NCBI GenBank assembly: GCA_027371535.1
Contig: DAHXMV010000001.1
Location: 253,259-317,258, forward strand
Source: Candidatus Amesbacteria bacterium
Lineage (GTDB): Bacteria > Patescibacteriota > Microgenomatia > CAZETR01 > Amesbacteraceae
Length of the DNA: 64,000 nt
Direction of reading: 5' to 3'
A model generated the notes under the pieces. It did not search any database, was not told the DNA's origin, and saw nothing but the letters and a program-made list of their open reading frames with translations. This document shows positions 10,857 through 47,340 of this stretch, piece by piece. Positions within the stretch are counted from its first letter, which is position 1. Every line of letters starts with the position of its first letter. A program made the position numbers and the translations under genes.

Positions 10857-11351
10857 TTATCTGGTGACTTCAATAACATCTCCCAATTCAGCATGAGGAG
10901 CCTGAACCATGACCCGGCTGCTACCTGTCGCCACTGCAATCTCATAACCGGTGTTGTAACCCCCGGCTGCGGCACAATCGGTAACCGGAGAGCCGGTATT
11001 GTTTGAGCCAAACTGGGGATCGGTAGGAATTGCCGAGACGTAAGTAGGCATGATGAAGGAGCAGATATCTACACCTGTACTGGCAACCTCAGTGAAGGTA
11101 TTAGTGATTCCCGTCGGAAGCCGACCTTTGTTATCAGCAGAGTATTGGCCAACAGCATTAAGAATTGTCAAAATGTCACTGCGCCTCTTGGTATTGTTGC
11201 TCTGGGCAAACTGCCTGGCCGGATTGATAGCAATCAGAGTAATGGTTAATAAGACTGCCAAAATGCCGATAACTACAAGAAGCTCTATAAGGGTAAAACC
11301 ACGGGCGGTTCTAGGAAATTTGGGCATTAAAGATAATTTAGTGCATTGCAT
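10857..11351 (-). CDS. pilA: Type IV major pilin (prepilin)
   Basis: Class III signal peptide ...TARG|FTLIELLVVIGILAVL with Glu at +5, followed by a hydrophobic helix. The real start is probably an internal Met (MPKFPRTARG). Confidence 0.75.
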   Translation of the reverse strand: MQCTKLSLMPKFPRTARGFTLIELLVVIGILAVLLTITLIAINPARQFAQSNNTKRRSDILTILNAVGQYSADNKGRLPTGITNTFTEVASTGVDICSFIMPTYVSAIPTDPQFGSNNTGSPVTDCAAAGGYNTGYEIAVATGSSRVMVQAPHAELGDVIEVTR

Positions 11352-11360
11352 AAATGCTTG

Positions 11361-12419: not shown

Positions 12420-12421
12420 AA

Positions 12422-12790
12422 TCAGGGATAAATTTCCTGCCAGGAATAAATAGTCAGCATATTTCCCACAAACCCGGCGGTAACTTTAATCGACCGAATA
12501 TAGTTGCCGACGCGAGCGGTGGAAATAATTGACGCACCCTGGCCCGTTGCAGATATTGTGGCAATTCCATCGCCGACTGTCAACGTCTCACCTGAATAAT
12601 AGGGGTCGCGAAGCAAACGCATAAGGGCATTTTCGATACCGCTCTCGGCCACCATATAGGCGTTTGTGGAAACTTCCAGACTGGTGGTAGACTTTTGAAT
12701 ACCTACAAAAATCATGGCTGCAGAAGTGGCTACCGTGATGGCGATCGCCATAAAAACCAATAAAATGACTAAAGCCTGGCCTTTTTTCAT
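12422..12790 (-). CDS. PilX-like / minor pilin-like protein
   Basis: N-terminal MKKGQALVILLVFMAIAITV hydrophobic anchor resembling PilX_N. Located inside the pilus operon. Confidence 0.4.
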   Translation of the reverse strand: MKKGQALVILLVFMAIAITVATSAAMIFVGIQKSTTSLEVSTNAYMVAESGIENALMRLLRDPYYSGETLTVGDGIATISATGQGASIISTARVGNYIRSIKVTAGFVGNMLTIYSWQEIYP

Positions 12791-13272
12791 CGGACGTCGA
12801 CTGTGGTGAGATAACTGCGGACGGCATTTTGACCGGTGGTGTCTTTGGCAAGGCTGGTGACAGTAAAACCGATTTGGACGCTGTTTTTACCTGAAATATT
12901 TCCCAGCCGGGTGACAGAAAAACCTGAAAATACAACGTCAAACGGAGACAAGTTGTAGGTCTTGACTCCCGTAGCCAGAGTCAGCACGCCGGCAGAAACT
13001 GCATAAGTGTAGCTGCTGCCGCCGATAGTTAATACCAGACTGGAGGCAGTATCACCAAGATTCACCGGTGTAGTTATACCTGTGGCCCGGCGGATATCGT
13101 ACTGCAACCTGCTGATTAAGTACTGACTGCTCTGGTCGACGCTGGTAGCGGCTTCAGATTTCAACTGGGAATCCAATACGGCCACTAAAATTCCGGCTAA
13201 AATTACCAGGAAGACTGAAATGATACCCATATAGATGAGCAATTCAATAATGGAAAAACCGCGCCGTTTCAT
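12787..13272 (-). CDS. Prepilin-type minor pilin (PilW/GspJ-like)
   Basis: MKRRG|FSIIELLIYMGII prepilin cleavage/methylation motif with Glu at +5. Confidence 0.6.
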   Translation of the reverse strand: MKRRGFSIIELLIYMGIISVFLVILAGILVAVLDSQLKSEAATSVDQSSQYLISRLQYDIRRATGITTPVNLGDTASSLVLTIGGSSYTYAVSAGVLTLATGVKTYNLSPFDVVFSGFSVTRLGNISGKNSVQIGFTVTSLAKDTTGQNAVRSYLTTVDVR

Positions 13273-15281
13273 GGTGAATAGTTAGCAGTCATATCATAAA
13301 AAATCGGGCTCTGGCTTTGGTCGGAAGAACTGAAAAAGACTTTATATCTGAAACACTGACCGGGATTGGTGTAAGTAGGAGCATAAGTGCCAAAAGGGAT
13401 GACCCCTGATATTGAAGCCTCAACGGGGGTAAAGTAAGCGGCGGGATCACCTCCCGGACCGACATAGGTAAAGGCAATATTATTGCAGGCGCCACCGATC
13501 GAAGCGGCCACACCGACCTGCATTTTGATACCGGTCTGCTTGGGTTGGGAAACTGAAGCGATAAAGCGATTAAAAGCGGTGGAATAACCGGCATTAAAAG
13601 CGAAAGATTCAAAACTGCCATTCAAAGATACACTGCCTCCCGGTCCTCCCTGGATTATCTGCAGTTCCTGACTGGCGGTATTAGTCAGAATATAGGCATA
13701 GGCACTGCCGTCATTTCGTAAAATACCGGCCACAGCATTTACGCTGGTGGCTCCATTGGGGTTGGTAAGGCCGCCGCACAAAGCCGGAGTGGCCTCGTTG
13801 ACAATGTTTAGGACCTGATATTGCTCCCCGCCGGAACCAACAATGATGGCATGATTACCGGATACCGTGATGACCCCCTTGGGATTCATTGCTCCGGAAT
13901 TGTAAGCACCCAGAGGTACCGGCAACGTGGCAATTTTACTCTCGGTATTGATAATGAAAAAGTCGTTTCTTTGAGGAGAGCCCTGGGAAGTGATCAAATA
14001 AGTGCGGGAGCCATCCGAGCTGACTGTCAAATCCACACCGTTTTGGGAATTACCCACATTAATCTGGGAAACCTTAGACATATTGGCGGGGTCGGTAATA
14101 TTGATAATATCCATCTGCTCGGTAGCGCTAGATACGGCAACATAGGCATAATTTCCATTTATAAATACCCTCTGACCCGTTCCGCCCAGCTGCACCTGTC
14201 CTAACTGAGGACGGGCACCGTTTTTGGAAGACAAATCAATAGCGTATAAATAGCTTCCCGCTGTGACGTAACCGACTTCATAGTTCTGATGGGCATTAAA
14301 GGCAGTGATGACCGTATTACCCTGTCCGCCTCCTGATGCACTAAATGTACCCACTTCGGAGTATGGCTGGGAAGAAACCTGAACGATATCGACTGTCATA
14401 CCGGGGTGATCCGAGGTCAGATAAACATATTTATTGGCAACATCGACATAAATACCGTAAGTTTTAAAATAATTGTACATTCCGGAATAACTGGCAATGG
14501 GCGGATTGTCGTGAGAAATCATCATGGCATCCATGGAATCACCGGAGGAGTTGCCGCCGGTTGTGGTATAGGCATAGTCCATGGCGGCCGAAGTCGTAGC
14601 TGAAATAGCCGTGGTAATCCCCTGTCCCGGCAGATCCAGCGGGGCAATAGTTAAATTGGGAGCACACCAATCCGATAAACCTCCTGCTCCCAACTGGACC
14701 TGTCCGTCATCGGGAACACCGGTTCCCGTGGTCGCGACTACGGCAGTGCCGCTTTGGGTACCGGCCTTAAAATCCGTCTGGGTAGTCTGTAAATATGCGT
14801 CATTATCCAGATAACGGGTCATATATGTGGTGACCGAGACATTGCCCGAATATGGAACCGACCAGGAGACTGTATGGGTGACTTTTTTGGTCGAGGGATC
14901 GATTTGGCCTCCGGAGCTGACAATTTTTCCGGTACTGTCACGGGACACATCAGAAATAGTCAGTGACCGGGTAAAATCTCCGATAGTCTGGGTACCTGCC
15001 ATCAGCACCCAACCGCCGGCCTGGGTAGCCGGATAATAGGTACCGTCCACAGCAAATGTAGTCCATTTTTTTTCCCGGACCACGCGGACCGCTTCTAACG
15101 ATTCATTTAATAAAGTCAAGGCATTCTGACGCTGGTTTAACTGAACCTGCCCCTGGCGGGAAGCTAAAAGACCTAAATAAATAGCCGGAATAATCAGGGC
15201 GGAGATGCCTAAAGCCACTAAAATTTCCACCAAGGACTGGCCGGCACTAAACCTATTAATCAACTGCTTGCACCACTCCAT
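13269..15281 (-). CDS. Large (670 aa) prepilin-type protein, putative minor pilin/tip-associated adhesin
   Basis: N-terminal ...FSAG|QSLVEILVALGISALII (Glu at +5; +1 is Gln instead of Phe). Long Ser/Thr/Gly-rich body with repeated Y-x-Y-V/L beta-strand-like segments. Confidence 0.55.
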   Translation of the reverse strand: MEWCKQLINRFSAGQSLVEILVALGISALIIPAIYLGLLASRQGQVQLNQRQNALTLLNESLEAVRVVREKKWTTFAVDGTYYPATQAGGWVLMAGTQTIGDFTRSLTISDVSRDSTGKIVSSGGQIDPSTKKVTHTVSWSVPYSGNVSVTTYMTRYLDNDAYLQTTQTDFKAGTQSGTAVVATTGTGVPDDGQVQLGAGGLSDWCAPNLTIAPLDLPGQGITTAISATTSAAMDYAYTTTGGNSSGDSMDAMMISHDNPPIASYSGMYNYFKTYGIYVDVANKYVYLTSDHPGMTVDIVQVSSQPYSEVGTFSASGGGQGNTVITAFNAHQNYEVGYVTAGSYLYAIDLSSKNGARPQLGQVQLGGTGQRVFINGNYAYVAVSSATEQMDIINITDPANMSKVSQINVGNSQNGVDLTVSSDGSRTYLITSQGSPQRNDFFIINTESKIATLPVPLGAYNSGAMNPKGVITVSGNHAIIVGSGGEQYQVLNIVNEATPALCGGLTNPNGATSVNAVAGILRNDGSAYAYILTNTASQELQIIQGGPGGSVSLNGSFESFAFNAGYSTAFNRFIASVSQPKQTGIKMQVGVAASIGGACNNIAFTYVGPGGDPAAYFTPVEASISGVIPFGTYAPTYTNPGQCFRYKVFFSSSDQSQSPIFYDMTANYSP

Positions 15282-15729
15282 ATTTATTAACGGTAATAAC
15301 CCGGGAAACCTGGGACTGGATATCAGTTAAGGTAAGAGAGTATGAGTCAGAGGTAAAATTGCCGGCTTCACCCGAACCGCGGGCAAATACGATCTGGGAA
15401 GAGGGAAAATTGGTGGCCGTAAACTCAAACTGCGGATCCAATATGACCACCACATTACCGGAATCCTGTGCAGAGTAGGTCTGCCCCCGAAAAAGAGTGT
15501 AACGATCGGTCTGAAAATAAATACCGGCGGAAGTGGCAGTTGCCGCTGTTTCAGTGTCCCCCAGCATAGATTTTATTTGCTGATTCCGAAGATCCGAAAT
15601 AAGCAATGATCCGGCAGAGTCAATCTCTGTCTGGCGCTGATTTTGGGTCAGGCTGGGAACCGAAAAAGCCAGTAAGGAAAACAAAATTCCCAAGACGACG
15701 ATTAATTCCACCAGAGTGAAACCACGCAT
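15256..15729 (-). CDS. Prepilin-type minor pilin (GspH/FimT-like)
   Basis: MRG|FTLVELIVVLGILFSLLAF canonical class III signal peptide. Confidence 0.65.
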   Translation of the reverse strand: MRGFTLVELIVVLGILFSLLAFSVPSLTQNQRQTEIDSAGSLLISDLRNQQIKSMLGDTETAATATSAGIYFQTDRYTLFRGQTYSAQDSGNVVVILDPQFEFTATNFPSSQIVFARGSGEAGNFTSDSYSLTLTDIQSQVSRVITVNKYGVVQAVD

Positions 15730-15731
15730 GA

Positions 15732-16790
15732 TCAGTGCCCCCCGATTTGACTAATAAGCCCATAAATAGGAGCAATAATTGAAACCATCATGCCGCCGAC
15801 ACCGACCGCGACGAAAAGCAAAAGTACGGGTTCCAGCAAGGCAGTGAGATTTTTTAATGCCAGGGAAACCTGATAATCCAGGAATTCGGAGATATCCAAC
15901 AGAGATTTGTCCAAAGTGCCGCTTTTTTCACCGGCTTCGATCAGTCTCACCATAATGGAAGGGATAACTCCCGGGGTGGACTTCAAACCATCCGAGAAAC
16001 GTTTACCGGACATAATCATTTCCTTGCATTTTTTAATTAACAGGGCCGTTTTACGGCGGACTACCACATCCTGGGATAACTCCAGGGCGGTGGTAATCGG
16101 CAGACCGGTAGACAACAGCAGGTACAAATTCCGGGAGAAACGGGTAAGGTCTATCTGACGAACCAATTCGGAGACTACCGGTAAAGAAGTCACCAGATTA
16201 ACCAGCAGCTGGCGCTGGCGTTTGATCAGGTAAAAGGCGATGCTTAATGTCATCAACACACCGCTGACCACATACCAGGTTTTTTTGATAATCAGATCCG
16301 AAACAGTAATCATGATCTGAGTCGGCAAAGGCAAGGAAACATGCAGGCTTTTAAAAACCACCGAAATTTTGGGGATAACGAAGATAAGGATGATGAGCAT
16401 TACGCCGGCAAAAACCACCATGATAACGACCGGATAAATCAGGGCACCTTTAATTTTGTCTGAAAATTCCATATCTTTTTGGATATGAACCCGCAGATCC
16501 GCCAGGGTGGTTTCCAAATTACCGGATTCCTCGGAAGCTTTAATTAAGCTTACTGTTACGGGATCAAAAGCGTCCGGAAAATTTGACAGGCTCTGGTAAA
16601 TCCGCTTACCCTGCATAAGGTCGGTACGCAAGTTTTCCAGGATTTTGCGCTGGCTGCCCTTGGCGTCTTCCAGTAAAGAATCGACCACTTCAATGATCGG
16701 AATACCGGATTTGAGCATGGTGGAAAGATTGGTGATCAGGCTGATCTTATCGTTGCCGCTTAGGGTGATATGGGAAACTTTTCCGGCCAT
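15732..16790 (-). CDS. pilC: Type IV pilus inner-membrane platform protein PilC (GspF family)
   Basis: GspF-family repeats and TM segments. Positioned between pilB and the pseudopilin genes. Confidence 0.8.
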   Translation of the reverse strand: MAGKVSHITLSGNDKISLITNLSTMLKSGIPIIEVVDSLLEDAKGSQRKILENLRTDLMQGKRIYQSLSNFPDAFDPVTVSLIKASEESGNLETTLADLRVHIQKDMEFSDKIKGALIYPVVIMVVFAGVMLIILIFVIPKISVVFKSLHVSLPLPTQIMITVSDLIIKKTWYVVSGVLMTLSIAFYLIKRQRQLLVNLVTSLPVVSELVRQIDLTRFSRNLYLLLSTGLPITTALELSQDVVVRRKTALLIKKCKEMIMSGKRFSDGLKSTPGVIPSIMVRLIEAGEKSGTLDKSLLDISEFLDYQVSLALKNLTALLEPVLLLFVAVGVGGMMVSIIAPIYGLISQIGGH

Positions 16791-16796
16791 AATTTT

Positions 16797-18482
16797 TCAG
16801 GATACAAATTCGGACTTAGCAACGCGCAAAACTTCCTCGATGCTGGTAACCCCGTCCCTGACTTTAATCAGGCCGTCCTCAAACATGCTGCGCATACCTT
16901 CGTTCATGGCAGCCTTGGCAATTATTTCCGAATCAGCCCTTTCGGTAATCAGCTTCCGGATATTTTTAGAAACCTCCAAAACCTCAAACAGACCTACCCG
17001 GCCCATATAGCCGGTATTCCTGCAAATTTTGCAGCCCTGACCTTTCTGGATGATGAATTCCTTGCCGCTGCCAAAAACCCGCTTGACCAGTTCTGCAGGA
17101 AAATTTCTTATCAATTCGTCGTGAGTCAGGGTAGTTTTGACTTTGCACTGAGAACAGGTCTGGCGCACCAGACGCTGGGCGATAATAATATTCAAGGTCG
17201 AAGCTACCAAAAACGGTTCAACGCCCATATCCGATAACCTGGGGATGGCTGTAGCGGCATCATTTGTGTGCAGGGTGGATAAAACCAAATGACCGGTCAG
17301 GGCGGCATTGACAGCAATTCCTGCCGTTTCGTCATCACGGATTTCACCCACAAAAATGATATTCGGGTCCTGACGGAGAATGGATCTTAAGCCATTGGCA
17401 AAAGTGAGATTGGTTTTGACGTTGACCTGGATCTGATTGGCGCCTTTGATCCGGTATTCGACCGGATCCTCTACAGTAGTGATATTTTTTTCGCGGGTAT
17501 TCAAAACCTTGAGAATGGAGTAAATGGAAGTCGTCTTACCGCTGCCGGTCGGACCGGTCGACAAAATCATACCGTAGGATTTGGAATAGGCGGACTCCAC
17601 TTTCTGCAGATCCGCCTCGTTCATACCCAGGGTTTGGAAGTTATAAGACCTGGACTGGGTAGATAAAAGCCGGAGCACGGCTTTTTCCCCCTGAACCACC
17701 GGGACTATGGAAACCCGGATGTCCAGCCTTTCCTCTTCCAGATCAACCCGCATTTTACCGTCCTGGGCACTCAGGTGTTCATCGGTTCTTAAACTGGACA
17801 GGACTTTCAAGCGGGTGATAATCCGGTCATGGAGAATTTTGGGCGCCGAAAGCGCATCGCGGAGAATACCGTCGACCCGAAAACGGGTGAGGGTCGAATT
17901 TTCCTGGGGTTCGATGTGGATATCCGAAGCTCTTTCCTGGTAGGCCGTATCGATTAACAAATCGACAATTTTGGCGACGGGAGGATCTTCAAGGGCATTA
18001 TTACTGGCCCAGATATCCTGCTTTAAAAGATCATCGATGGCTTTCTGCAAATCTTTTTCATAAGCTCTTAAGGCGTTGGTAATTTCGGTGGACAGGGCAA
18101 AATAGACTTCTATTTTTGACCCGGTTTTTTTGGCCAGAGCAGTCAACAAATCAGTACGATCAGGGCTTAACATGGCTACTTTTATGGCTTCCGGTCCCCT
18201 TTCAAAAGGAATGATTTTGTGTTTCCTGGCAAATCTTTCCGGAATGATGTTGATGACTTCCTGGGGAATATTTAACTGGGAAAGAAAAACCACCGGCACT
18301 TTGTAGTATTCTCCGATCAGCCCGGCCAATTTATCCTGCGGAATAGCTTCTTTCTGGAGCAGGGCCTTATCCAAAGTGAGTTCGGAATTGACGGCAAAAC
18401 GGGAGATATCGTTTAATTTGGCTTCATCAATGAGATTGGCATTAAGAAGCAGAGCACGCAGCTGGTCATCGGGCAGGGCCAT
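16797..18482 (-). CDS. pilB: Type IV pilus assembly ATPase PilB (GspE family)
   Basis: N-terminal GspE-N-like domain, Walker A LSTGPTGSGKTTS, Asp box, His box, and a CxxC...CxxC tetracysteine motif (CSQC...CKIC). Confidence 0.9.
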   Translation of the reverse strand: MALPDDQLRALLLNANLIDEAKLNDISRFAVNSELTLDKALLQKEAIPQDKLAGLIGEYYKVPVVFLSQLNIPQEVINIIPERFARKHKIIPFERGPEAIKVAMLSPDRTDLLTALAKKTGSKIEVYFALSTEITNALRAYEKDLQKAIDDLLKQDIWASNNALEDPPVAKIVDLLIDTAYQERASDIHIEPQENSTLTRFRVDGILRDALSAPKILHDRIITRLKVLSSLRTDEHLSAQDGKMRVDLEEERLDIRVSIVPVVQGEKAVLRLLSTQSRSYNFQTLGMNEADLQKVESAYSKSYGMILSTGPTGSGKTTSIYSILKVLNTREKNITTVEDPVEYRIKGANQIQVNVKTNLTFANGLRSILRQDPNIIFVGEIRDDETAGIAVNAALTGHLVLSTLHTNDAATAIPRLSDMGVEPFLVASTLNIIIAQRLVRQTCSQCKVKTTLTHDELIRNFPAELVKRVFGSGKEFIIQKGQGCKICRNTGYMGRVGLFEVLEVSKNIRKLITERADSEIIAKAAMNEGMRSMFEDGLIKVRDGVTSIEEVLRVAKSEFVS

Positions 18483-37675: not shown

Positions 37676-40063
37676 GTGAAAAAGGGGTTAATCATCGGCC
37701 TGATATTATTTTCGGGTTGGCTTCTGTGGTGGACTATTCCCGATATAAAAAGCGGCGGGACGATAAAAATCCGAGACAGAAACGGGGAATTGCTATACGA
37801 AACAGCCGGAAACGTGGGGCGAAAGCAACCCGTAAGCTATAACCAATTTCCAAAATATCTGATAGACGGGGCTGTGGCTGCCGAGGATAAGACCTATTTT
37901 ACCAATCCGGGAATAGACCCTGTGGCCATGCTTAGGGCAGCCTTTCAAAATCTGAAATACGGGCAAATTGTCAGCGGCGGAAGTACCATCACCCAACAAT
38001 TAGCAAGAATTGCGGTTATCGCCGACAAATCGATCTACTCGCACAACTGGCTTCGAAAAATCAGAGAAAGCCTGATAGCCATAAGATTAACTCTGGTATA
38101 CAGCAAACAGGACATTCTGACCCAATATTTAAACAATGTTTACTTCGGACACCTGGCTTACGGCGCCCAGGCGGCTGCCCGGACATATTTTCATAAGGAC
38201 GTCAGCCAGCTGTCATTGGCTCAGAGCGCATATCTGGTGAGCCTGATTTCGACTCCGGAAAATGATCCTTCAATAATCCGGAGACGACAAACGGAAATAT
38301 TAAACCAGTTAGAGTCGCAAAAATTCATCAGCCGGGAACAGGCAACCAATGCCAAAACCGAGGAAATGACTTTATATCCTCCCGAGGCCTCAGCCTCTGC
38401 CCCGCACTTTGTGGACTACGTCAGACAGCAACTGGCAGATACGGGCATAAATTATTCCGGCGGCATAAATGTGATCACGACCCTGGACGGCCCCGACTTT
38501 ATGCTGGCCCAGGATATTGCCCGGGAATGGGTGAAAAAACTGTCCGGGGAGCACGATTTATCCAATGCTTCCCTGGTAATGCTGGATAACCGGACCGGGG
38601 CCATCAGAGTAATGCTCGGGGGGATTGATTACGCCGATGCAACCCACGCCGGACAGGTGAATCTGACCACAGCCAGCAGACAACCGGGGTCTGCCCTAAA
38701 GCCCATTACCTACGCGGCCGCCTTTGACATGGGATATACACCGGCAACATTGATATATGACGTACAAACGGTGTACCAAACTCATACCGGCGAGGGATTC
38801 ACCCCGAATAATTACGACGGCCGGTATCACGGACTGGTCCTGGTTCGGGAAGCCCTGGCGTCATCTTTAAACCAGCCGGCGGTAGAAATGTTAAACCGGA
38901 TCGGCATCGGAAACTTTTTACAAACTGCCGCCGACCTGGGGATCAGGACATTAAAACCCGACCCCAAATATGACCTGGCACTGACATTGGGCGGGGGGGA
39001 AGTCACGCTTTTAGATCTGACCAATGTATATGCCAGCCTGGCCAGGGGAGGAAGTTATTTACCGCCGTATGCCATCGAAAAAATTACCGATGATTCCGGC
39101 CGGGTGATCTATCAACACCACCCCCAACAATCCAAACAGGTTTGGGGAAATAAAAGTCCGCAGATAGCCTACCTGATTACCGATATTCTGGCAGATCCGC
39201 TGGCCCGGATTCCGGGTTTCGGGGAAAAAAATCCGCTGGTGCTGTCTTTTCCCGCGGCGGTGAAAACCGGAACCACGACTGACTGGCACGACAACTGGAC
39301 GGTGGGTTATACGCCGCAAACAACGGTGGGGGTATGGGTGGGAAATAATGACAACCATCCGATGATCCGGCTGACGGGAATTACGGGCGCGGCGCCGATC
39401 TGGAACCAGTTTTTTGAGGAAATCCATAAAGGCCAGCCTGCGGTGACGTTTACAAAACCTGCGGGGATCGTCCAAACCACCATTTGTAAAACAGACGGCT
39501 TACTACCCGGTGATTTATGCCGGGAACAAATGGAGGAAAAATTTATAGCCGGAACAGAACCCAAACAGGAGTCGCAAATTTACAAACAGGTTTTAATCGA
39601 TACCAGAAATAACCTCCCGGCAGGGATGGATTGTCCCAAAAAATATTTGGTCACCAAAGTGTTGATTGATTATCCGCCACAGGTCTACGGTTGGGCGGTG
39701 GACAACGGGCTGACGGTCATTCCGAGAGATTCTTCACCGCTTTGCAGCCAGCAAGCCAATACCAATTCCGCATCAACATATGTGAATATAATATTTCCCA
39801 AAAATAATTCCGTGTTTCAGTCAGCTGCAGGGGTGGTAAAAAATCAGCTGATAGATTTATCGGTGAACACTTCCGGGGATGTAACCGGTGTCAACTGGTA
39901 TATTGACGGAAAATTATATAAATACACGAACACTTACCCGTTTTTATCAGCCTGGCCGCCCACACCCGGTGATCATGTGATTATGGCAGAAGGGATAACC
40001 CCGACCGGTGAAACAGCCCGGAGTCAGCAGATTCTCATAAAAGTCACAGAATACGGATTGTAA
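37676..40063 (+). CDS. pbpC: Class A penicillin-binding protein, PbpC-like (transglycosylase plus transpeptidase plus C-terminal domain)
   Basis: GT51 motifs (EDKTYFTNPGID, GGSTITQQLAR). Transpeptidase motifs SxxK (SALKP), SxN (SSLN) and KTGT. The C-terminal beta-rich domain resembles the PbpC C-terminal domain. The pairing with a downstream alpha-2-macroglobulin gene is a known conserved linkage. Confidence 0.8.
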   Translation: MKKGLIIGLILFSGWLLWWTIPDIKSGGTIKIRDRNGELLYETAGNVGRKQPVSYNQFPKYLIDGAVAAEDKTYFTNPGIDPVAMLRAAFQNLKYGQIVSGGSTITQQLARIAVIADKSIYSHNWLRKIRESLIAIRLTLVYSKQDILTQYLNNVYFGHLAYGAQAAARTYFHKDVSQLSLAQSAYLVSLISTPENDPSIIRRRQTEILNQLESQKFISREQATNAKTEEMTLYPPEASASAPHFVDYVRQQLADTGINYSGGINVITTLDGPDFMLAQDIAREWVKKLSGEHDLSNASLVMLDNRTGAIRVMLGGIDYADATHAGQVNLTTASRQPGSALKPITYAAAFDMGYTPATLIYDVQTVYQTHTGEGFTPNNYDGRYHGLVLVREALASSLNQPAVEMLNRIGIGNFLQTAADLGIRTLKPDPKYDLALTLGGGEVTLLDLTNVYASLARGGSYLPPYAIEKITDDSGRVIYQHHPQQSKQVWGNKSPQIAYLITDILADPLARIPGFGEKNPLVLSFPAAVKTGTTTDWHDNWTVGYTPQTTVGVWVGNNDNHPMIRLTGITGAAPIWNQFFEEIHKGQPAVTFTKPAGIVQTTICKTDGLLPGDLCREQMEEKFIAGTEPKQESQIYKQVLIDTRNNLPAGMDCPKKYLVTKVLIDYPPQVYGWAVDNGLTVIPRDSSPLCSQQANTNSASTYVNIIFPKNNSVFQSAAGVVKNQLIDLSVNTSGDVTGVNWYIDGKLYKYTNTYPFLSAWPPTPGDHVIMAEGITPTGETARSQQILIKVTEYGL

Positions 40064-40084: not shown

Positions 40085-43000
40085 ATGATTTCAAGGTGCG
40101 GACATATGTTTTTGGATAAGCTAAAGGGGCTAGCCATAAAAGGTGTGGGGAAAATCATCTCGTGGGGATGGGGTTTTGTTCATTTGCCACTGAAGGAGAA
40201 ATGGGCAAGAATCAAAATCCCGGTGATGGTGGCAATAATTGTCGGGGTGGTAATTCTGATCGGACCTTATTTTGCACAGCCGAAAATCAGCGTCAGCTTT
40301 CCGGGAAACAACTCCCGGGAAAATCCTTTAGACAGCGATGTGGAAATCATTTTTGACCGGGGGATGAATAAAGCGAGCGTGGAAAAAAGTTTTTCAATAA
40401 CTCCAAAGGTGGACGGAGCCCTGACGTGGGAAAGCAACCGGAAACTGGTGTTTACACCAAAAATTCCCCTGCAGAGAGGGGTAAACTACAAAGTGAAATT
40501 TAACGGACTGGCAGTTTCCAGTTTCCTGTCGCCAATGCCCGGCGGGGTATCGGTGACTTTTACGACGGTCGGGAATCCAATCGTATCGGTCTTTTCGCCC
40601 CAGTCCGAGGCAGTAGAGGACCTGGCACCGGTAATGGTAATTTTTGACCGGCCGATGATTCCTTTGACTACGGCCACAAACAGCGCGGAGAAAAAATCTC
40701 CGTTTGAAATATCGCCTCCACTAACCGGAACGGGAAAATGGCTGGGGACTACCGCTTACCAGTTTACCCCGTTGAAACCATTTAAAAAAGCCACCACCTA
40801 CACGGTATCCGTGGTCCCGAATCTGAAATCGGCGGACGGAGGAATAATTAGCCAGTCCTTTTCCTGGCAGTTTTCCAGCCTCAGACCGCATGTTTTATCG
40901 GTAGTTCCGCGGGAGGGGGAGTTTTACGCGTCACCGACAGCCTCTGTCTCTGCAGTTTTCAATCAAAATATCGACGGAGCATCAGCTGCCACCCACTTCA
41001 AGTTGGTAGACACTAACGGGAATCAGATTCCCGGGCGGGTAACAGTTAACGGAAAGCGATTGGGATTTTACCCGGCGGCGGCTCTGGTACGGGAAAAAAT
41101 TTATAAAGCGGTAATTATGGCCGGTCTGGCCGGAAAAGAAGGGCCCAACGGAACGGAATCCGATTATGCCTGGAGCTTTACCATGGCTGCCAAACCGGCA
41201 GTCCTGAGATCAGCGCCGGCTGACGGGGATAAAAATGTAGAAAATCAGGGAATATCGGTATTTTTCAAAACCCCCATGGATGAAGATTCCTTTAAGGACA
41301 ATATCAGTATCAACCCCGTACCGGAAAACAAACCGAATTTCAATTTTTCGGACTGGAACAGTCAAAACGAGCTGAATATTTACAGCTACCTCTTTAGGTC
41401 GACGAAATATACGGTGACCATCGGACCAAAAGTAACCGACCAGTACGGAGTGCCCCTGGGATCGGCATATACATTCAGTTTCACTACCGCCGACTATAAA
41501 CCCAGCGTGTCGTTTGTGCCTTTCGGTACTTATTTTGCCAGTTTCAATCAGCAGATAGTCCCGCGGATTGTGGCCCAGGTAAACAATGCCGGGGAAGTAA
41601 ATTACAATTTATATAAACTCGACCGGAACAGCTTTTTGGATTTGTACAAGCGCTACTATACGGATTTCTGTTCGTGGAACAATGAAGGCTGCCGGAACTG
41701 GCAAAATTATGACGTTTCCAAACTGGAAAAAGTCCGGTCATGGAAAGAAACCATAGATATAAACCCCAGCGTACCGGTAAATGTGGTGACCAAAGTGACG
41801 GCGGCAGACGGGACGAATCTGTTGTCGGGATTTTATTTTCTGACGGCCAACGTGAATACCGGACAGCATGACAATATGGTGATGATTGTGTCGGACGCCA
41901 CCATGGCGGTCAAAAAGAGCAGCCAGCAGATTTTTACCTGGACGGTGGACCAGACCAGCAATGAAGTCATCGGGGGGATGAATATGGAACTGACCGATGC
42001 CTACGGCAACAAGCTGGCATCCGGACAGACAAACGGGGACGGAGTCTGGCAGCAGGACGTCAACATCGGCAATACCTATAACCTGCTGATTTTCGGACAA
42101 AAAGACAGCGATGTGGTAGTGGCTTCTTCAAACTGGGGAAGCGGGATAAACCGGTATGATTTCGGTTTGCCGAGTTATTACAGCTACAACGCCTCCGAGG
42201 ATAACCAAAACAGCAATAACCGGTATAAATTATTTCTAACCACAGACAGGCCGATTTACCGGCCCGGGCAAAAAATTTATTTTAAAGGCCTGATCCGTAA
42301 AGATAACGACGCGGCATATGCCAATATTCCGCCGGGAACACCGGTTTCAGTCAATATTGCCGATGGCCGGGGGAGATCCATTTACAGCAAATCACTACCG
42401 ACAAATTCTTCAGGAACTTTTGCCGACACCTGCGACATCAGTGCCGACGGAGAACTGGGATATTATGATCTGACTGCTACATACGGGGATAACAGCGTAT
42501 CGCAGCAGGTGCAGGTGGAAGAGTTCCGCCGGCCGGATATGCTTTTGACCATTATCCCGGATAAGGGTTATTACCTGGCCGGACAGACCCCGGGGGCGAC
42601 GATTAACACGGCTTATTATTTCGGGGCACCAATGGCCAATGCCCAAGTCAACTGGTCTTTAAATACCCAGGATTATTTCTTTAACTGGAGCCGTGACTGG
42701 CGGTTTGAATTCGGGGATGTGGAAGATATCTGGTACAGATGGTGGGGTTACCACTCCTCTTCGGGAGCTCAGGTTACCAGCGGCACCGGGGTAACGGATG
42801 ACCAGGGTAACCTGAACCTGAAAATTCCTTTCAACATGGGGAAATATACTACCAGCCAACAATTGGAACTGGTGGCCCAGGTGACCGATAAGAGTAATCA
42901 GGCGGTAGGGTCATCACAGACTTTTGTAGTCCACCAAGGAGGAATTTATGCGGGCTTGCACCCGGAAAGCTACGGCAGCAGCGCCGGCTCCGAAACCAAG

Positions 43001-46000
43001 GTGGAGGTGGTGACGGTGGCCCCTGATGAAAATGAAGTCCCGAATACTGCCGTCACCATCCAGTTTTTCAAAAGAACATGGAATACCGTCCGGCAACTGG
43101 ATCCCGAATCGGGGCAATTTACCTATGTCAGCCAGCCGCACGACACCCAGGTAGCCAATGCCAATATCATCACCGACAACTTCGGCCATGCAACCACCTC
43201 TTTTACCCCGGGTGAGGGCGGCACATACCGGGTGCTGGCCAGTGTAACGGATGCCCTGGGGAACACGACAAAAACCAGCAGTTATGTCTGGGTGTCGGGC
43301 AGCGGATACATGACCCAGAGGGAGAATAACGACCGGATTCTGGTAGTACCGGATAAACGGGAATATTTTGTCGGGGATAATGCCTCCGTATTTGTGGATA
43401 CACCGTTTGCCACCGGTTCCGCCAAGACCCTCTTAACAGTCGAAAGATCCAAGGTGATCAGTTATAAAATCGTTGACACCAGCGATGTTTCCAATAATTT
43501 TCAAATGCCGATAAACCCCAACTACTCGCCCAATATCTATATCGGGGCGGTACTGGTCAAGGGCGGCAACCTGGTAAGCGCACCGCCGGAAATGAAAGTC
43601 GGATATGCCGAAGTAAAAGTGACAGACAAAAAACAGCAGCTGACGGTGGATATCCAGACTGATAAACCAAAATATAAGCCGGGGGAGACGATGCATGCTG
43701 TCATCACTGCCAAAGATTTGCTGGGGCATCCGGTAAATGCGGAATTGGCTGTCGGCCTGGTAGATAAATCGGTCTGGGACCTGTCGGAAATCCAGCTGCC
43801 GGATATTTATCAGTACTTTTATGTACCCAGGAATCTGGAAGTGGATACATCGCATTTGTTATCCATTTCCATGGACAGGATCAATACCAACACCAACCTG
43901 GGGGCCAAAGGCGGCAGCGGCGGATGTTTTACCGCGGAAACTCCGATTCTCTTGCCCGGCGGATTAACCAAACCCATCGGGGAGATCAAACCCGGAGACC
44001 GGGTGTTAACCAAAAGCAGCCCCGAATCGGCTGATCTGATCCCCGGAAAAGTGACGGCCGTATTAAAGCACAGTGTGGACAGATACCTGATCATAAACGG
44101 CAGTATTCATGTCACACCAGTACATTTATTATTTGTTAACGGGAATTGGAAAGCGGCTGGGGAAATTCAGACGGGTGACTGGCTGTTAAATACCAAAAAC
44201 GAACCGGTCAGAGTAAATTCTGTAGAGCAAGTATTCGGAAAAGACTTGATAGTTTATAACCTGGAAGTTGATCAGTACCACACTTTTTTTGCAGACGGGA
44301 TTTTTGTGCACAACCAGAAAGGCGGCGGTACGGATACCGCCCGGAATAATTTTCCCGAAACCGCTTATTGGAATCCGTCGATATTGACCGGCGATGACGG
44401 AAAAGCAGATATCACTGTCAAGCTGCCCGACAATCTGACCACGTGGAGATTGTCGGCGATTGCGGATTCCCGGGAGTCGGCATTCGGGTCGGCAACAGAT
44501 GAATTTGTAGTCAACCGAGAGGTGATGATCAGACCGGTGATACCCAGATTTTTGTTATACGGCGATCAGGCCAGTCTGGGAGCAATTATTGTAAATACCA
44601 GCGGTAAATCAGCCGTCTTCTCCACCACTCTGTCAGGCAAAGGTCTGACAGTAAATGCCAATTCCGTCCAGACGGCCACGATAGCCGACGGCGACCAGGC
44701 GAAATTTTTGTGGCCGACAACCACTGCCGGGAGCACCGATTCAGCCACCATTAATATCTCGGTAACGGACCAGAGCGGAACCCTGCATGACAGTTTAGTG
44801 CAAACCCTGCCGGTGAAAAGCTTTTCGACCGGAGAAACCGTGGCCACAGCCGGACAGGCGGCGGACACGGCGGTAGAAAACGTCAAATTACCGTCCGTGG
44901 TGGAATCCCAAAACGGGCGGGTGGATATTACTTTGTCCCCTTCACTGGGGACGGGCAGTATAGAAGCCGCCAATTATATGTATGATTACTCCTATTTCTG
45001 TACCGAGCAGACAACCAGTAAATTACTTACGGCAGTCAGCGCCCTTAAGGTATTAAGACAGGCAAAAACGGAAACTCTGGGATCCGTATCCCAGATGGAA
45101 ATGAACTGGATGGCAAATGATGCCATCCAAAGGCTGAATAATACCCAGCGGCCCGACGGCGGATGGGGCTGGTGGACGGAAGAAAGCTCCAGTGATCCGA
45201 TGATGTCTGCATATGCTTATTTAGGTCTTTGGGAAGCCAAAAACGCAGGCTTCACAGTCGCGGATAAAACCCTGAATCCGGCCAGACAATTTCTGCTGAC
45301 CAGTCTTTCGGGAAATTATCCGACCATAGGCCTGGACGGGAAAACTTTCCTGTTATATGCCTTAAAAGACAGCGGAGCTAATCTGTCGGCGTATGCGACA
45401 AATCTGTATGACCGGAGATTTGAAATGGGGGTAGCTTCGAGAGCATATCTGGCCATGGTCCTGAGGGCCAGTAAATTATCCGACGCAGCCAACAAGCAAT
45501 ATCAGGAGGTGCTGAGCCTGGCGAAAAAAACTTCTACCACCAGCCACTGGGAAGAATCCGGCAGAAATTATTATTACTGGTATTACGGAGCTAATCCGAC
45601 CACGGCAGCAGTCCTGGAGATGATGACGGATTTTGCCCCGAATAATCCCATGACCGGTGAAGCGGTGAGATATCTGATGGCCAACAGGGGGGATTATAAC
45701 TGGGGTTCCACCCAACAGACAGCCCTGATTATGAGAGCCATTACGAAGCAGATGCTGGCCGGCCAGAATGCCAACCTGAAAGAAAATTACAAACTGGAAA
45801 TCAACAACCGGGAGGTGCTTTCCGGACAATTAACCGCCGCTGATTTGCTTAGACTGGTGAAATTCAGCGTGCCGATTTCCAGCCTGGCTATCGGGCAGAA
45901 TAACACATTTAAAATTTCCAAAAGCGGCAGCGGAAATCTTTATTACAACTTTAACATGCATTACTTCCTGCCGTTTTCACAAATCGCGGCGCTTGATCAG

Positions 46001-46444
46001 GGATTGGTCATCATCCGGGAATTCACCGATGACCAGGGTAACAGCCTGCCCTTGGAAACCATCAGGGAAGGAACGCAAGCCTCGGTGAAGCTGACTGTCG
46101 TCGCTCCGGCAACCAGACAATTTGTCATCATCGAGGATATGCTCCCGGCCGGGCTGGAGGCGGTCAATGAAAGCCTGAAAAATGTGGTCAACCTGAATAA
46201 ATCAAATCCCATTTTAGACGAACCGGACAATTGGTGGTATTTTTACCACAGAGAATACCGGGACGACCGGACGACGATGTTTGCCAGATACCTGCCGGCC
46301 GGAATTTACACAGTCACCTACCAGGTGCGGGCGACCACTCCCGGCAAGTACCATTACCCGCCGGCCCAGGCTCATGAGATGTACTTTCCCGATGTGTCAG
46401 GACATTCCGACGGCGGATGGCTGACCGTGATTCCCAACAAGTAA
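40085..46444 (+). CDS. Alpha-2-macroglobulin family protein (2119 aa), N-terminally membrane-anchored, with an inserted Hint domain
   Basis: N-terminal TM/signal anchor (IPVMVAIIVGVVILIGPYF). Repeated MG-like beta domains. A post-bait motif RNNFPETAYWNP...TTWRLSAIA matches the FPETW(L)W...TTWEI region that follows the bait in A2M/C3 proteins. Thioester motif FCTEQT. Located directly downstream of pbpC. Confidence 0.8.
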   Translation: MISRCGHMFLDKLKGLAIKGVGKIISWGWGFVHLPLKEKWARIKIPVMVAIIVGVVILIGPYFAQPKISVSFPGNNSRENPLDSDVEIIFDRGMNKASVEKSFSITPKVDGALTWESNRKLVFTPKIPLQRGVNYKVKFNGLAVSSFLSPMPGGVSVTFTTVGNPIVSVFSPQSEAVEDLAPVMVIFDRPMIPLTTATNSAEKKSPFEISPPLTGTGKWLGTTAYQFTPLKPFKKATTYTVSVVPNLKSADGGIISQSFSWQFSSLRPHVLSVVPREGEFYASPTASVSAVFNQNIDGASAATHFKLVDTNGNQIPGRVTVNGKRLGFYPAAALVREKIYKAVIMAGLAGKEGPNGTESDYAWSFTMAAKPAVLRSAPADGDKNVENQGISVFFKTPMDEDSFKDNISINPVPENKPNFNFSDWNSQNELNIYSYLFRSTKYTVTIGPKVTDQYGVPLGSAYTFSFTTADYKPSVSFVPFGTYFASFNQQIVPRIVAQVNNAGEVNYNLYKLDRNSFLDLYKRYYTDFCSWNNEGCRNWQNYDVSKLEKVRSWKETIDINPSVPVNVVTKVTAADGTNLLSGFYFLTANVNTGQHDNMVMIVSDATMAVKKSSQQIFTWTVDQTSNEVIGGMNMELTDAYGNKLASGQTNGDGVWQQDVNIGNTYNLLIFGQKDSDVVVASSNWGSGINRYDFGLPSYYSYNASEDNQNSNNRYKLFLTTDRPIYRPGQKIYFKGLIRKDNDAAYANIPPGTPVSVNIADGRGRSIYSKSLPTNSSGTFADTCDISADGELGYYDLTATYGDNSVSQQVQVEEFRRPDMLLTIIPDKGYYLAGQTPGATINTAYYFGAPMANAQVNWSLNTQDYFFNWSRDWRFEFGDVEDIWYRWWGYHSSSGAQVTSGTGVTDDQGNLNLKIPFNMGKYTTSQQLELVAQVTDKSNQAVGSSQTFVVHQGGIYAGLHPESYGSSAGSETKVEVVTVAPDENEVPNTAVTIQFFKRTWNTVRQLDPESGQFTYVSQPHDTQVANANIITDNFGHATTSFTPGEGGTYRVLASVTDALGNTTKTSSYVWVSGSGYMTQRENNDRILVVPDKREYFVGDNASVFVDTPFATGSAKTLLTVERSKVISYKIVDTSDVSNNFQMPINPNYSPNIYIGAVLVKGGNLVSAPPEMKVGYAEVKVTDKKQQLTVDIQTDKPKYKPGETMHAVITAKDLLGHPVNAELAVGLVDKSVWDLSEIQLPDIYQYFYVPRNLEVDTSHLLSISMDRINTNTNLGAKGGSGGCFTAETPILLPGGLTKPIGEIKPGDRVLTKSSPESADLIPGKVTAVLKHSVDRYLIINGSIHVTPVHLLFVNGNWKAAGEIQTGDWLLNTKNEPVRVNSVEQVFGKDLIVYNLEVDQYHTFFADGIFVHNQKGGGTDTARNNFPETAYWNPSILTGDDGKADITVKLPDNLTTWRLSAIADSRESAFGSATDEFVVNREVMIRPVIPRFLLYGDQASLGAIIVNTSGKSAVFSTTLSGKGLTVNANSVQTATIADGDQAKFLWPTTTAGSTDSATINISVTDQSGTLHDSLVQTLPVKSFSTGETVATAGQAADTAVENVKLPSVVESQNGRVDITLSPSLGTGSIEAANYMYDYSYFCTEQTTSKLLTAVSALKVLRQAKTETLGSVSQMEMNWMANDAIQRLNNTQRPDGGWGWWTEESSSDPMMSAYAYLGLWEAKNAGFTVADKTLNPARQFLLTSLSGNYPTIGLDGKTFLLYALKDSGANLSAYATNLYDRRFEMGVASRAYLAMVLRASKLSDAANKQYQEVLSLAKKTSTTSHWEESGRNYYYWYYGANPTTAAVLEMMTDFAPNNPMTGEAVRYLMANRGDYNWGSTQQTALIMRAITKQMLAGQNANLKENYKLEINNREVLSGQLTAADLLRLVKFSVPISSLAIGQNNTFKISKSGSGNLYYNFNMHYFLPFSQIAALDQGLVIIREFTDDQGNSLPLETIREGTQASVKLTVVAPATRQFVIIEDMLPAGLEAVNESLKNVVNLNKSNPILDEPDNWWYFYHREYRDDRTTMFARYLPAGIYTVTYQVRATTPGKYHYPPAQAHEMYFPDVSGHSDGGWLTVIPNK
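43925..44314 (+). other. Hint / mini-intein-like (bacterial intein-like) domain of 130 aa embedded in the A2M ORF (residues 1281-1410)
   Basis: Block A CFTAETPILLPGG (Cys1), block B IHVTPVH (TxxH), block F/G VYNLEVDQYHTFFADGIFVHN ending in His-Asn. Too short to contain a homing-endonuclease domain. The +1 residue is Gln (not Cys/Ser/Thr). It is flanked by Gly-rich GGSGG and QKGGG. Confidence 0.7.
44999..45010 (+). other. Putative thioester motif CTEQ of the A2M protein
   Basis: CxEQ in the context YSYFCTEQTT (codon 1639). The canonical A2M thioester motif is CGEQ/CLEQ. Confidence 0.55.
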
Positions 46445-47340
46445 ACTCCTATAATCAGGGCATGCGGATCACCGGTGATGAAGATTTACAAAAACAACTG
46501 ATCCGGACCCAGGAAAACGAGGCCACGGAGGCAATTATTTATTCCAGATTGGCAGGCCGGGTCAGAGACAAAAAGAGTAAACAGATTCTCCTGGCAATTG
46601 CCCGGGACGAGAAAAGACACGCCGGATACTGGAAAAAACGAACCCAAATAGCAGTTTCTGAAAATACTTTGAAGGTGGTCTTTTTTACAGTGACGGCTAA
46701 ATTATTGGGACTGACATTTGCCATAAAACTGATGGAAAAAGGCGAGGAACTGGCCCAGATAAACTACCGCAAAATATCTGAACTGATACCGGATGCCCTC
46801 AATATTGAGAAAGAAGAAAAGTCCCATGAGATGAAACTGGTAAACATGCTGGATGATGAAACCCTCAAATACGCCGTGTCAATAATTCTGGGTATTAACG
46901 ATGCTTTGGTGGAATTAACCGGAGCGTTGGCCGGTTTTACCCTGGCCCTCTCCAATACCAAACTGATCGGCATGACCGGCCTCATATCCGGAGTTGCGGC
47001 TTCACTGTCCATGGGGACCTCGGAGTATTTGTCCACCCAGGCAGAGAAACAGGACCGGGATCCGAAAAAAGCCGCCATTTATACGGGGCTGACTTATCTG
47101 TTGACGGTGATATTATTAATAATCCCCTATTTTACTTTGAATAATGTCTATACGGCACTGATAATTACACTGGTATTGGCAATAGGGGTAATCCTGTTTT
47201 TCACTTTTTACGTCTCAGTTGCCAACGACGTATCATTTTCCAAACGGTTCTGGCAGATGACCGGAATATCCCTGGGAGTATCGGCGCTGACGTTTATGCT
47301 GGGATATCTGGTAAAAAAAATCCTGGGGGTGAATATTTAA
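46417..47340 (+). CDS. Er-VIT1 protein: N-terminal ferritin-like (erythrin) domain fused to a VIT1/CCC1-family iron transporter
   Basis: N-terminal ENEATEAIIYSRLA...DEKRHAGYW (rubrerythrin-like ExxH). C-terminal ILGINDALVELTGALAGF VIT1 signature with TM helices. The start is probably an internal Met (MRITGDE...). Confidence 0.6.
   Translation: MADRDSQQVNSYNQGMRITGDEDLQKQLIRTQENEATEAIIYSRLAGRVRDKKSKQILLAIARDEKRHAGYWKKRTQIAVSENTLKVVFFTVTAKLLGLTFAIKLMEKGEELAQINYRKISELIPDALNIEKEEKSHEMKLVNMLDDETLKYAVSIILGINDALVELTGALAGFTLALSNTKLIGMTGLISGVAASLSMGTSEYLSTQAEKQDRDPKKAAIYTGLTYLLTVILLIIPYFTLNNVYTALIITLVLAIGVILFFTFYVSVANDVSFSKRFWQMTGISLGVSALTFMLGYLVKKILGVNI

Follow-up and report, generated by a model that had tools for sequence, protein, structure and literature searches.

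Introduction

Bacterial intein-like (BIL) domains are defined by the absence of a nucleophile at +1, the first residue after the domain, with type A retaining a C-terminal His-Asn (PMC4031507, PMC7765530), and they occupy hypervariable regions of non-conserved bacterial proteins (PMC7765530). The route proposed for type A starts from a thioester at the N-terminal junction, after which Asn cyclisation cuts the C-terminal junction and the freed amine attacks the thioester (PMC4031507). BIL2, from the BUBL1 locus of Tetrahymena thermophila, has been reported to form an isopeptide between the C-terminus (Gly) of the preceding ubiquitin-like domain and the epsilon-amine of a lysine (PMC8616854). 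Here, a domain of this kind is described within a giant alpha-2-macroglobulin (A2M) encoded by a 64,000-nucleotide stretch of a Candidatus Amesbacteria bacterium (contig DAHXMV010000001.1, positions 253,259 to 317,258; the whole stretch is termed the window). With high confidence, the segment is a 130-aa type-A bacterial-intein-like Hint domain in the disordered bait loop of a probably membrane-anchored thioester A2M.

Among bacterial A2Ms, the bait region of E. coli ECAM (YfhM) has about 20 residues (Arg923–Leu942) disordered in the cleaved structure and holds no inserted domain (PMC4498604). The RDDR and EXMY motifs of ECAM first hold the thioester domain and, after cleavage, bind the bait, the bait cut untethering a disordered stretch and displacing the thioester domain from the C-terminal macroglobulin (MG) domain (PMC4498604). 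The A2Ms of the candidate phyla radiation (CPR, Patescibacteria) have been noted as a likely defence against host proteases (PMC8080830, PMC9793634), with no mention of Hint or intein in either text. A literature search, with most subscription journals outside its coverage, found nothing relevant that links A2M with intein, BIL or Hint domains, or inteins with CPR, in agreement with an initial annotation of the window, made from its sequence, which was aware of no described A2M with a Hint domain in its bait. What is new is a BIL-A domain at a new and mechanistically meaningful host site, in the sense of ‘not found’ rather than ‘never described’.

A Hint domain of the BIL-A type

The A2M open reading frame (ORF), translated over its whole length, is a single unbroken frame of 2119 codons, and the insert therefore needs no frameshift explanation. 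Across the two junctions (marked by slashes) the translation reads ...NLGAKGGSGG/CFTAETPILLPGG...IHVTPVH...VYNLEVDQYHTFFADGIFVHN/QKGGGTDTARNNFPETAYWNP...LPDNLTTWRL (window 43865–44434). The Hint domain opens with CFTAETPILL, Cys1 being residue 1281 (window 43925) and Asn130 residue 1410 (window 44314), and carries block B as T64-x-x-H67 (Thr1344, His1347), block F as V110-Y-N112, and block G as H129-N130 (His1409-Asn1410).

The best-scoring Pfam model for the segment is PT-HINT (PF07591; 46.6 bits against a cut-off of 27.7, E 5e-12). Pfam Vint (32.8 bits, cut-off 27) and NCBIfam TIGR01443, intein_Cterm (32.4 bits, cut-off 15.6), were also exceeded, with Intein_splicing falling slightly under its threshold (35.5 bits, cut-off 35.8). 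The top PDB sequence match was 2LWY, a bacterial intein-like domain from Clostridium thermocellum (E 1.5e-8, residues 2–130), after which came BUBL BIL2 chains (6TMM, 6Y75; E 5e-7) interleaved with chains of the M. tuberculosis RecA mini-intein. An AlphaFold2 model of the domain with short flanks, built separately from the larger model described below, gave block-mean predicted local distance difference test (pLDDT) values of 93–98. Foldseek ranked BIL2 (6Y75, 6TMM) and 2LWY as its top five matches, above true inteins and Hedgehog, with E 4.5e-12 and a template-modelling score (TM) of 0.78 for 6Y75, and TM 0.85 with a root-mean-square deviation of 1.9 for 2LWY. There were 59 PDB matches at E ≤ 0.001, and among the 50 listed, all were BIL, intein, Hedgehog or Vint.

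These results bear out the initial annotation, which had placed a Hint or mini-intein-like fold at codons 1281–1410. Its coordinates, Cys1, the TxxH in IHVTPVH, the terminal His-Asn, the Gly-rich flanks and the downstream ...TTWRL are all seen in the translation; at 130 aa there is, as it held, no room for a homing endonuclease; and the profile search and frameshift check that it had proposed both came out in its favour. Its suggestion of a BIL-A pattern likewise stands, the best matches in sequence and fold being BIL domains rather than true inteins, where nearness to BIL-A is judged by nearest neighbours and not by a curated BIL-A profile. No second Hint domain was found in the window, a family hidden Markov model (HMM) run against its six-frame translation having matched the A2M ORF alone, with one full-length domain. 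The G+C content of the domain (0.48) is the same as that of its flanks (0.49–0.52), and recent horizontal acquisition was rejected on this ground.

Comparison with 2LWY shows a common set of features: a Hint fold of about 130–140 aa, Cys1, TxxH, a V-Y-N block F, a C-terminal His-Asn without a +1 nucleophile, and a location within a variable part of a bacterial protein that is secreted or at the surface, in this case probably membrane-anchored, with BIL domains as the nearest neighbours. The window domain differs in that its host is an A2M and its site a functional trigger loop, in that the junctions of its family are unusually fixed (GG/C ... HN/x-K-G), and in being retained lineage-wide rather than scattered. 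BIL2 is the top fold match, and here Gly-Gly precedes the domain and a lysine is fixed at +2; however, BIL2 is eukaryotic and cytoplasmic with ubiquitin-like flanks, whereas the window domain, lacking such flanks, lies between A2M_BRD and A2M domains outside the bacterial cell, where isopeptide formation is hypothetical. The class-1 mini-inteins (Mtu RecA, Npu/Ssp DnaB, DnaE) gave weaker but significant matches and have in common the Hint fold, Cys1, TxxH, His-Asn, the small size and the lack of an endonuclease, but the window domain is without Cys, Ser or Thr at +1, and its loop is disordered and variable, where canonical inteins occupy conserved active-site regions of conserved and usually essential proteins. 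Block F of inteins usually has Asp where the window domain has Asn. Domains of the PT-HINT family, to which the best Pfam score belongs, sit just upstream of a C-terminal toxin domain, which they release; in contrast, the 709 residues downstream of the window domain are A2M/MG, thioester region and bMG10, with no toxin domain in their Pfam assignment.

Location in the bait loop

Pfam assigns to the 2119-aa protein four Big_5 domains, MG2, bMG3/5/6, A2M_BRD (residues 1087–1233), A2M (1426–1510) and bMG10 (1973–2103), and its closest solved relatives are Salmonella A2M (SaA2M) and ECAM (E about 3e-35). In this layout the Hint domain falls between A2M_BRD and the A2M/MG domain. SaA2M (4U48) residues 708–920 align to query residues 1039–1252, and residues 969–1641 to 1432–2110, leaving unaligned 49 residues in SaA2M (920–969) against 180 in the query, equal to the 130-aa Hint domain plus about 50. 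An AlphaFold2 model of residues 1027–1580 (44 aligned homologues, mean pLDDT 85.6) has the Hint blocks at pLDDT 91–97 between two low-confidence linkers (model residues 231–252 and 387–396), and the domains flanking them find their best matches in bacterial A2M structures. When the Hint domain is deleted in silico, the sequence aligns to human A2M 728–816 (TETVRKYFPETWIWDL...), the segment that follows the human bait. Because of the SaA2M gap, the poorly modelled linkers and this human alignment, the domain is placed, by alignment and modelling, at the C-terminal end of the bait loop.

The C-side linker begins with a non-nucleophilic Gln at +1, followed by Lys+2 and Gly+3, and leads to an invariant Arg that starts the post-bait motif RNNFPETAYWNP; nine residues separate the end of the Hint domain from this Arg in the window protein. 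The A2M host, the bait-region site and the +1 Gln were thus all correctly called in the initial annotation, and the structure prediction that it had asked for does show the domain flanked by low-pLDDT bait linkers.

In the complement proteins C3, C4 and C5, the anaphylatoxin (ANA/C3a) domain is a folded insert at the bait-equivalent place, just upstream of R-x-x-F-P-E-[ST]-W. Removal of C3a, which is done by an external convertase, triggers a conformational change and thioester exposure. The likeness is one of analogy only, a folded insert at the bait place before this motif, since the folds are unrelated and the external convertase is set against a domain with chemistry of its own.

A conserved family in Patescibacteria

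A HMMER search with residues 1087–1520 against 1.84 billion cluster representatives returned 23,932 matches, and most of the best 150 of these span the Hint domain. Scanning these best matches for Hint gave 143 Hint-bearing proteins, a few of them known from the other searches. Together with the window protein, at least 120 A2Ms of more than 1500 aa that carry one Hint domain each were collected, as representatives clustered at 50% identity; the ten representatives that were checked are all metagenomic singletons or pairs. A word-index homologue search gave 21 matches with the 434-aa region, none of its A2Ms having a Hint domain, and two with the Hint domain alone, this index being too insensitive.

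Cys1, Gly-1 and the C-terminal His-Asn are each present in 120/120, a single Cys per Hint domain is likewise universal (120/120), and the domain is 127–130 aa long in 113/120. Gly-2, which completes the Gly-Gly before Cys1, is found in 115/120, Lys+2 in 115/120 (with a lysine somewhere in +1 to +5 in 120/120), and Gly+3 in 108/120. The +1 residue is Gln in 48, Asp in 35, Glu in 19, Gly in 7, Ser in 4, Lys in 3, Asn in 2, and Leu and Ala in one each, and is never Cys or Thr. Across the family the domain ends 4–12 residues (mode 6) before the invariant post-bait Arg. In alignment A1 (26 sequences), the invariant Hint residues are Cys1, Gly24, Thr64, His67, Val110, Asn112, His129 and Asn130, with Tyr111 nearly so; downstream, the post-bait Arg and the Trp of an AYWNP motif are invariant. 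The thioester motif CxEQ is present in 104/120. It is missing from the other 16, which nevertheless keep Cys1, His-Asn and Lys+2 (e.g. P0120, P0146, P0155, P0160, P0064, P0038), and a role of the Hint domain independent of the classical thioester follows for these.

When one genome per species was scanned, 33 loci gave a full Hint-in-A2M match, all with GG/C...HN/xK junctions, the best match to the window having 57% identity. Most are titled Patescibacteria/CPR (Roizman-, Levy-, Davies-, Moran-, Uhr-, Nomura-, Sacchari- and Peri-bacteria, WWE3), the other titles being nine ‘uncultured Gammaproteobacteria’, one each of Bathyarchaeia, Nevskiaceae and Bdellovibrionales, and three generic ‘bacterium’. 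The proteobacterial and archaeal labels on these bins are suspected to be wrong. The survey of orthologues proposed in the initial annotation thus recovered the Hint domain in at least 120 A2M representatives and 33 loci, as well as Hint-less relatives with an empty site. A2Ms with a Hint domain in the bait form a large conserved family, and most of its genome representatives bear Patescibacteria labels; because the design is conserved in more than 100 related Patescibacteria proteins, the Hint domain is probably no stray element but a working part of the trap that has gone undescribed.

Hint domains of the same subfamily also occur in proteins other than A2M, with an HN/KG(G) junction. P0112 (1132 aa) has five in tandem and P0016 (735 aa) two Hint regions; in these arrays one ...HN/KG abuts the next CF..., and a Tim44-like domain then follows in both. 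P0156 (3399 aa, with PKD domains) has three.

Empty sites and selection

The A2Ms fall into two size classes. Class I, which includes the window protein, L001, L002 and L006, comprises proteins of about 2100–2280 aa with Big_5 domains and a pbpC gene immediately upstream; class II, the majority of the family, comprises proteins of about 1650–1800 aa, with no PBP1C gene in the flanks examined except at L023. Hint-less relatives are known in both, and the insertion is at exactly one site. Nine class-I-like metagenomic proteins without Hint (including P0025, P0026, P0028 and P0060) are 42–52% identical over the 434-aa query region, and these, together with L045 (Woesebacteria, pbpC synteny; 10001–10357), have the bait ...NLGSKGGSGGG-GEDGGF-DTSR..., while the Hint-less L069 (Saccharibacteria; 2789–2989) reads ...TGGGGAGGG-EPSR.... 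The predicted excised product of the window protein, KGGSGG-QKGGG, has the same length as the empty-site bait. A lysine at the place aligned to Lys+2 is absent from all Hint-less relatives inspected. Judged from these alignments, the Hint domain is a clean presence/absence insertion within an oligo-Gly bait.

The Hint-less baits of the two Patescibacteria-labelled loci (L045, L069) and of the nine class-I-like proteins are almost purely glycine (KGGSGGGGEDGG; TGGGGAGGG), whereas the A2Ms of Armatimonadota, Pyrinomonadaceae and one Spirochaetota bin have ordinary mixed baits. Such a bait might act as a decoy that draws glycyl-glycine endopeptidases, or be what a lost Hint domain left behind.

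Pairwise identities of Hint and flank are 0.42 and 0.40 within class I, 0.43 and 0.30 within class II, and 0.40 and 0.23 between the classes. Hint identity climbs from 0.41 to 0.52 as flank identity rises, and for 39% of the proteins the nearest neighbour by flank ranks among the five nearest by Hint, where chance would give about 4%. Since the domain is better conserved than its host at depth and the two identities rise together, these comparisons indicate purifying selection over the whole domain, rather than decay, and co-divergence with the host.

A 9-mer, AAAGGCGGC (Lys-Gly-Gly, in frame), flanks the Hint domain at 43906–43914 and 44317–44325, 411 bp apart, these being two of its three copies in 64 kb. 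Among the 33 related loci, two share a 9-nt flanking repeat, of another sequence, and the rest share 0–8 nt; with no comparable repeat common to the 33, the 9-mer was rejected as a target-site-like direct repeat and is treated as a probable coincidence of Gly codons. It could, however, mediate in-frame loss of the domain.

Host protein and gene neighbourhood

The coordinates of the locus are given in Table 1. By reading of the translation, the N-terminus of the A2M has a single hydrophobic helix and no obvious lipobox; the helix is a probable membrane anchor, which would put the remainder of the protein outside the cytoplasm.

Table 1. Features of the A2M locus, with positions in the window
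Feature	Position	Strand	Basis
PBP1C-like penicillin-binding protein gene, immediately upstream of A2M	37676..40063	+	Pfam Transgly, Transpeptidase, BiPBP_C
Giant A2M ORF, host of the Hint domain, 2119 aa	40085..46444	+	ORF list, translation, Pfam, structure matches
N-terminal hydrophobic helix, aa 45–64, IPVMVAIIVGVVILIGPYFA	40217..40276	+	Read from translation
Bait-region domain A2M_BRD, aa 1087–1233	43343..43783	+	Pfam PF07703, 72.9 bits
N-side bait linker, aa 1257–1280, ending AKGGSGG; Gly-2 and Gly-1 directly precede Cys1	43853..43924	+	pLDDT < 50, model residues 231–252
Hint / BIL-A-type autoprocessing domain, aa 1281–1410, 130 aa	43925..44314	+	Pfam, NCBIfam, 2LWY match, AlphaFold2, Foldseek, alignment A1
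C-side junction/linker QKGGGTDTAR, aa 1411–1420	44315..44344	+	pLDDT < 50, model residues 387–396
A2M macroglobulin domain directly past the bait, aa 1426–1510, including LPDNLTTW	44360..44614	+	Pfam PF00207, 62.1 bits
Thioester motif CTEQ, aa 1639–1642, in the thioester domain	44999..45010	+	Motif search
C-terminal bMG10 with RDDR (aa 2059) and EMY (aa 2098)	46001..46393	+	Pfam PF17973, 116.2 bits; motif positions

The pbpC (PBP1C) gene is the usual partner of the thioester-type bacterial A2M, and in the window the PBP1C-type ORF stops 21 nt before the A2M start; the same synteny is found in L001, L002, L006 and the Hint-less L045. By its CTEQ, RDDR and EMY motifs, its domain chain and the upstream PBP1C-type gene, the host is assigned to the pbpC-linked, thioester-type bacterial A2Ms. 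Like ECAM and SaA2M, it has the MG chain, a bait-region domain, a CxEQ thioester domain, an MG10 with RDDR and E-x-M-Y, and pbpC adjacency. It differs from them in having an oligo-Gly bait that houses a folded 14-kDa autoprocessing domain, in about 600 extra N-terminal residues (four Big_5), and in being apparently anchored by a transmembrane helix, the other two being lipoproteins by their PDB molecule names. Eight bins titled Gammaproteobacteria (L001, L003, L006, L008, L009, L022, L026, L029) and one titled Bathyarchaeia archaeon (L002) have an A2M and PBP1C 45–57% identical to those of the window, and these genes of the nine bins group with Roizmanbacteria- and Woesebacteria-labelled bins.

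Downstream, at 46417–47340 (+), a 307-aa ORF encodes a VIT1 (vacuolar iron transporter) domain preceded by a rubrerythrin/ferritin-like part; because it overlaps the end of the A2M ORF by 28 nt, it may be co-transcribed with the A2M. A 669-aa ORF at 13269–15281 (-) has no Pfam match at E ≤ 1e-5 and belongs to a run of minus-strand ORFs (9709–18482) with a PilB-type ATPase (16797–18482; T2SSE, MshEN) and a LytR_C protein, a run that possibly belongs to a type IV pilus cluster. The other genes of the window, among them those for Lon, the PilB-type ATPase, subunits of an F-type ATPase, glycogen enzymes and RelA/SpoT, are compatible with a Microgenomates-like bacterium, though no proof of one. Scans of the 64 kb for tRNA and Rfam families gave nothing relevant.

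Proposed mechanism

The reading that is tentatively preferred, at somewhat short of an even chance, is that the domain would be a self-excising BIL-A-type module whose flanks are re-joined by an amine after export, leaving a short oligo-Gly bait. The A2M would be exported and fold outside the cytoplasm, and the Hint domain would generate a thioester from the peptide bond between Gly-1 and Cys1 through an N–S acyl shift, with Thr64 and His67 of block B assisting. Cyclisation of Asn130, assisted by His129, would cut the C-terminal bond. With no Cys, Ser or Thr at +1 a branched ester is not possible, and an amine of the C-flank would attack the thioester instead. This would be the alpha-amine that the cut frees on Gln+1, the route put forward for type-A BILs, or else the epsilon-amine of the Hint-linked Lys+2, the route of BUBL BIL2. 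The Hint domain would then leave, the halves of the A2M being re-joined via a short oligo-Gly bait that resembles those of Hint-less relatives, and self-excision would mature the arming of the trap and probably time it.

As read from the alignments, the complete set of residues for the N–S acyl shift and Asn cyclisation is conserved, and canonical class-1 splicing is excluded because +1 is never Cys or Thr across the family. A lysine appears tied to the domain, being present within +1 to +5 of every Hint-bearing protein and in none of the Hint-less relatives inspected. The spliced product would also be a sensible one, since the Hint-less bait KGGSGGG-GEDGGF-DTSR equals the predicted spliced length. 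From these sequence features we infer that catalytic chemistry would take place and that its product would be ligated rather than merely cut.

Several points weigh against this reading. With 16/120 Hint-bearing A2Ms lacking CxEQ, the role of the domain in those proteins cannot be solely the arming of that warhead. Type-A BILs give mostly cleavage products (PMC4031507), and one review holds that they are unable to ligate (PMC7765530), which makes plain cleavage of the bait a serious alternative. It also argues against self-excision that restoring no more than a bait of the Hint-less kind brings the host no obvious benefit. The retention of the domain in a loop that tolerates its loss in turn points to more than neutral splicing, and to a processing that benefits the cell. 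Finally, co-divergence of Hint and flank is weak at depth (r = 0.26) and is visible in closer pairs only; with pairwise identities saturated near 40%, transfer of the domain between the two size classes may or may not have occurred.

A variant that is possible but doubtful makes the bait itself a chemically active element, in which a Gly-Gly thioester would be resolved by a lysine, in cis or in trans. In cis, Lys+2 would give an isopeptide-branched ‘splice’ and the bait would never be left open; in trans, the lysine would belong to a protease caught in the trap or to the surface of the host cell. If true, the protein would have two independent thioester warheads, or else a protease-independent, self-timed trigger, like a C3 that releases its own C3a, and such a bait could serve epibiotic ultrasmall bacteria as a covalent device for defence or attachment.

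Alternative explanations

Rated distinctly below the preferred self-excision is an autocatalytic bait, in which cyclisation of Asn130 would cut the bait, whether or not the Gly-Cys thioester is also hydrolysed, and no re-ligation would follow. The freed N-terminus QKGGGTDTAR would untether the bait as a protease does, and the A2M would close and expose its thioester without one, the cut being either constitutive or a response to a cue such as thiols, pH, metal ions or redox state. In topology, the Hint domain would then be a counterpart of the C3 anaphylatoxin domain, the positions of which are presumably equivalent, but with autocatalytic removal. In keeping with this, the domain lies merely 4–12 residues (mode 6) ahead of the invariant post-bait Arg, and that it persists in a loop tolerant of indels suggests that the host gains from it. 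Cleavage products predominate in type-A BILs (PMC4031507, PMC7765530), and the window protein keeps CTEQ as well as RDDR and EMY, the motifs through which a bait cut displaces the thioester domain in ECAM (PMC4498604). However, a self-trigger that fired constitutively would squander a thioester with a short life, the Hint-less relatives, whose oligo-Gly bait is the same, show that in this lineage the trap works while its bait is intact, and neither the invariant Cys1, if C-terminal cleavage sufficed, nor the Hint-tied lysine near +2 would be explained. The Gly-Gly~Cys1 thioester could instead be the functional product, attacked in the manner of BUBL by a lysine or other amine of a nearby protein or surface, so that the anchored 1280-residue N-terminal fragment would be joined via Gly-Gly to a protease, host-cell surface or cell wall. 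For BIL2, the top fold match, ATP-independent attachment of the ubiquitin-like domain before it to lysines on several substrates has been reported (PMC8616854). Of the 120 N-exteins, all end in Gly and 115 in Gly-Gly, and the 16/120 A2Ms that have lost CxEQ with the Hint domain complete look as if the latter supplied the covalent chemistry. Transfer of the N-terminal fragment alone would, however, make the invariant His-Asn superfluous, Hedgehog Hint domains being without it; moreover, Gly-Gly is not Hint-specific but also found in Hint-less baits, the preceding domain is not ubiquitin-like, and no target is known. This second warhead is rated improbable.

Equally unlikely is a selfish origin, as a degenerate mini-intein of an ancestral Patescibacterial A2M, kept solely by the need to remove itself and with no benefit to the cell. 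The intein-like fold and motifs, together with a presence/absence polymorphism at exactly one site in both A2M size classes, would fit such a remnant, and the catalytic residues of true inteins are kept by the same kind of selection. However, the homing endonuclease and +1 nucleophile are absent in all 120, the domain is better conserved than its host and co-diverges with it, and a specific flanking lysine travels with it. Its site lies in a non-essential surface protein, within a loop that is disordered and varies in length, whereas inteins are reported from conserved parts of host proteins (PMC2814812). An assembly or frameshift artefact, or a catalytically dead spacer, can practically be dismissed: the frame is continuous over 2119 codons and the base composition unremarkable, all catalytic residues are retained, and the same architecture recurs in at least 120 independent cluster representatives and 33 loci. 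Nothing was found in favour of this explanation, which the independent recurrences and conserved catalytic residues refute.

Significance

A2M and complement proteins fire by a cut in one loop, and here that loop holds a domain whose sole known chemistry is cutting and re-joining its own flanks. If the Hint domain cuts, this would be the first A2M able to fire without a protease; if it ligates, possibly via a lysine isopeptide, it would be a rare BIL/intein-like element kept by selection in a non-essential surface protein. What bacterial intein-like domains are for has not been settled since they were discovered, and in the A2M they have a host whose function is well understood and can be assayed. 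Their regular junctions (GG/C...HN/xKG), small size (129 aa) and single Cys make these domains candidate ligation tools outside the cytoplasm. In Patescibacteria, A2Ms are among the few large surface proteins and have been proposed as an epibiont’s shield against host proteases (PMC8080830). Whether the Hint domain cuts or ligates, either outcome bears on how this trap gets armed.

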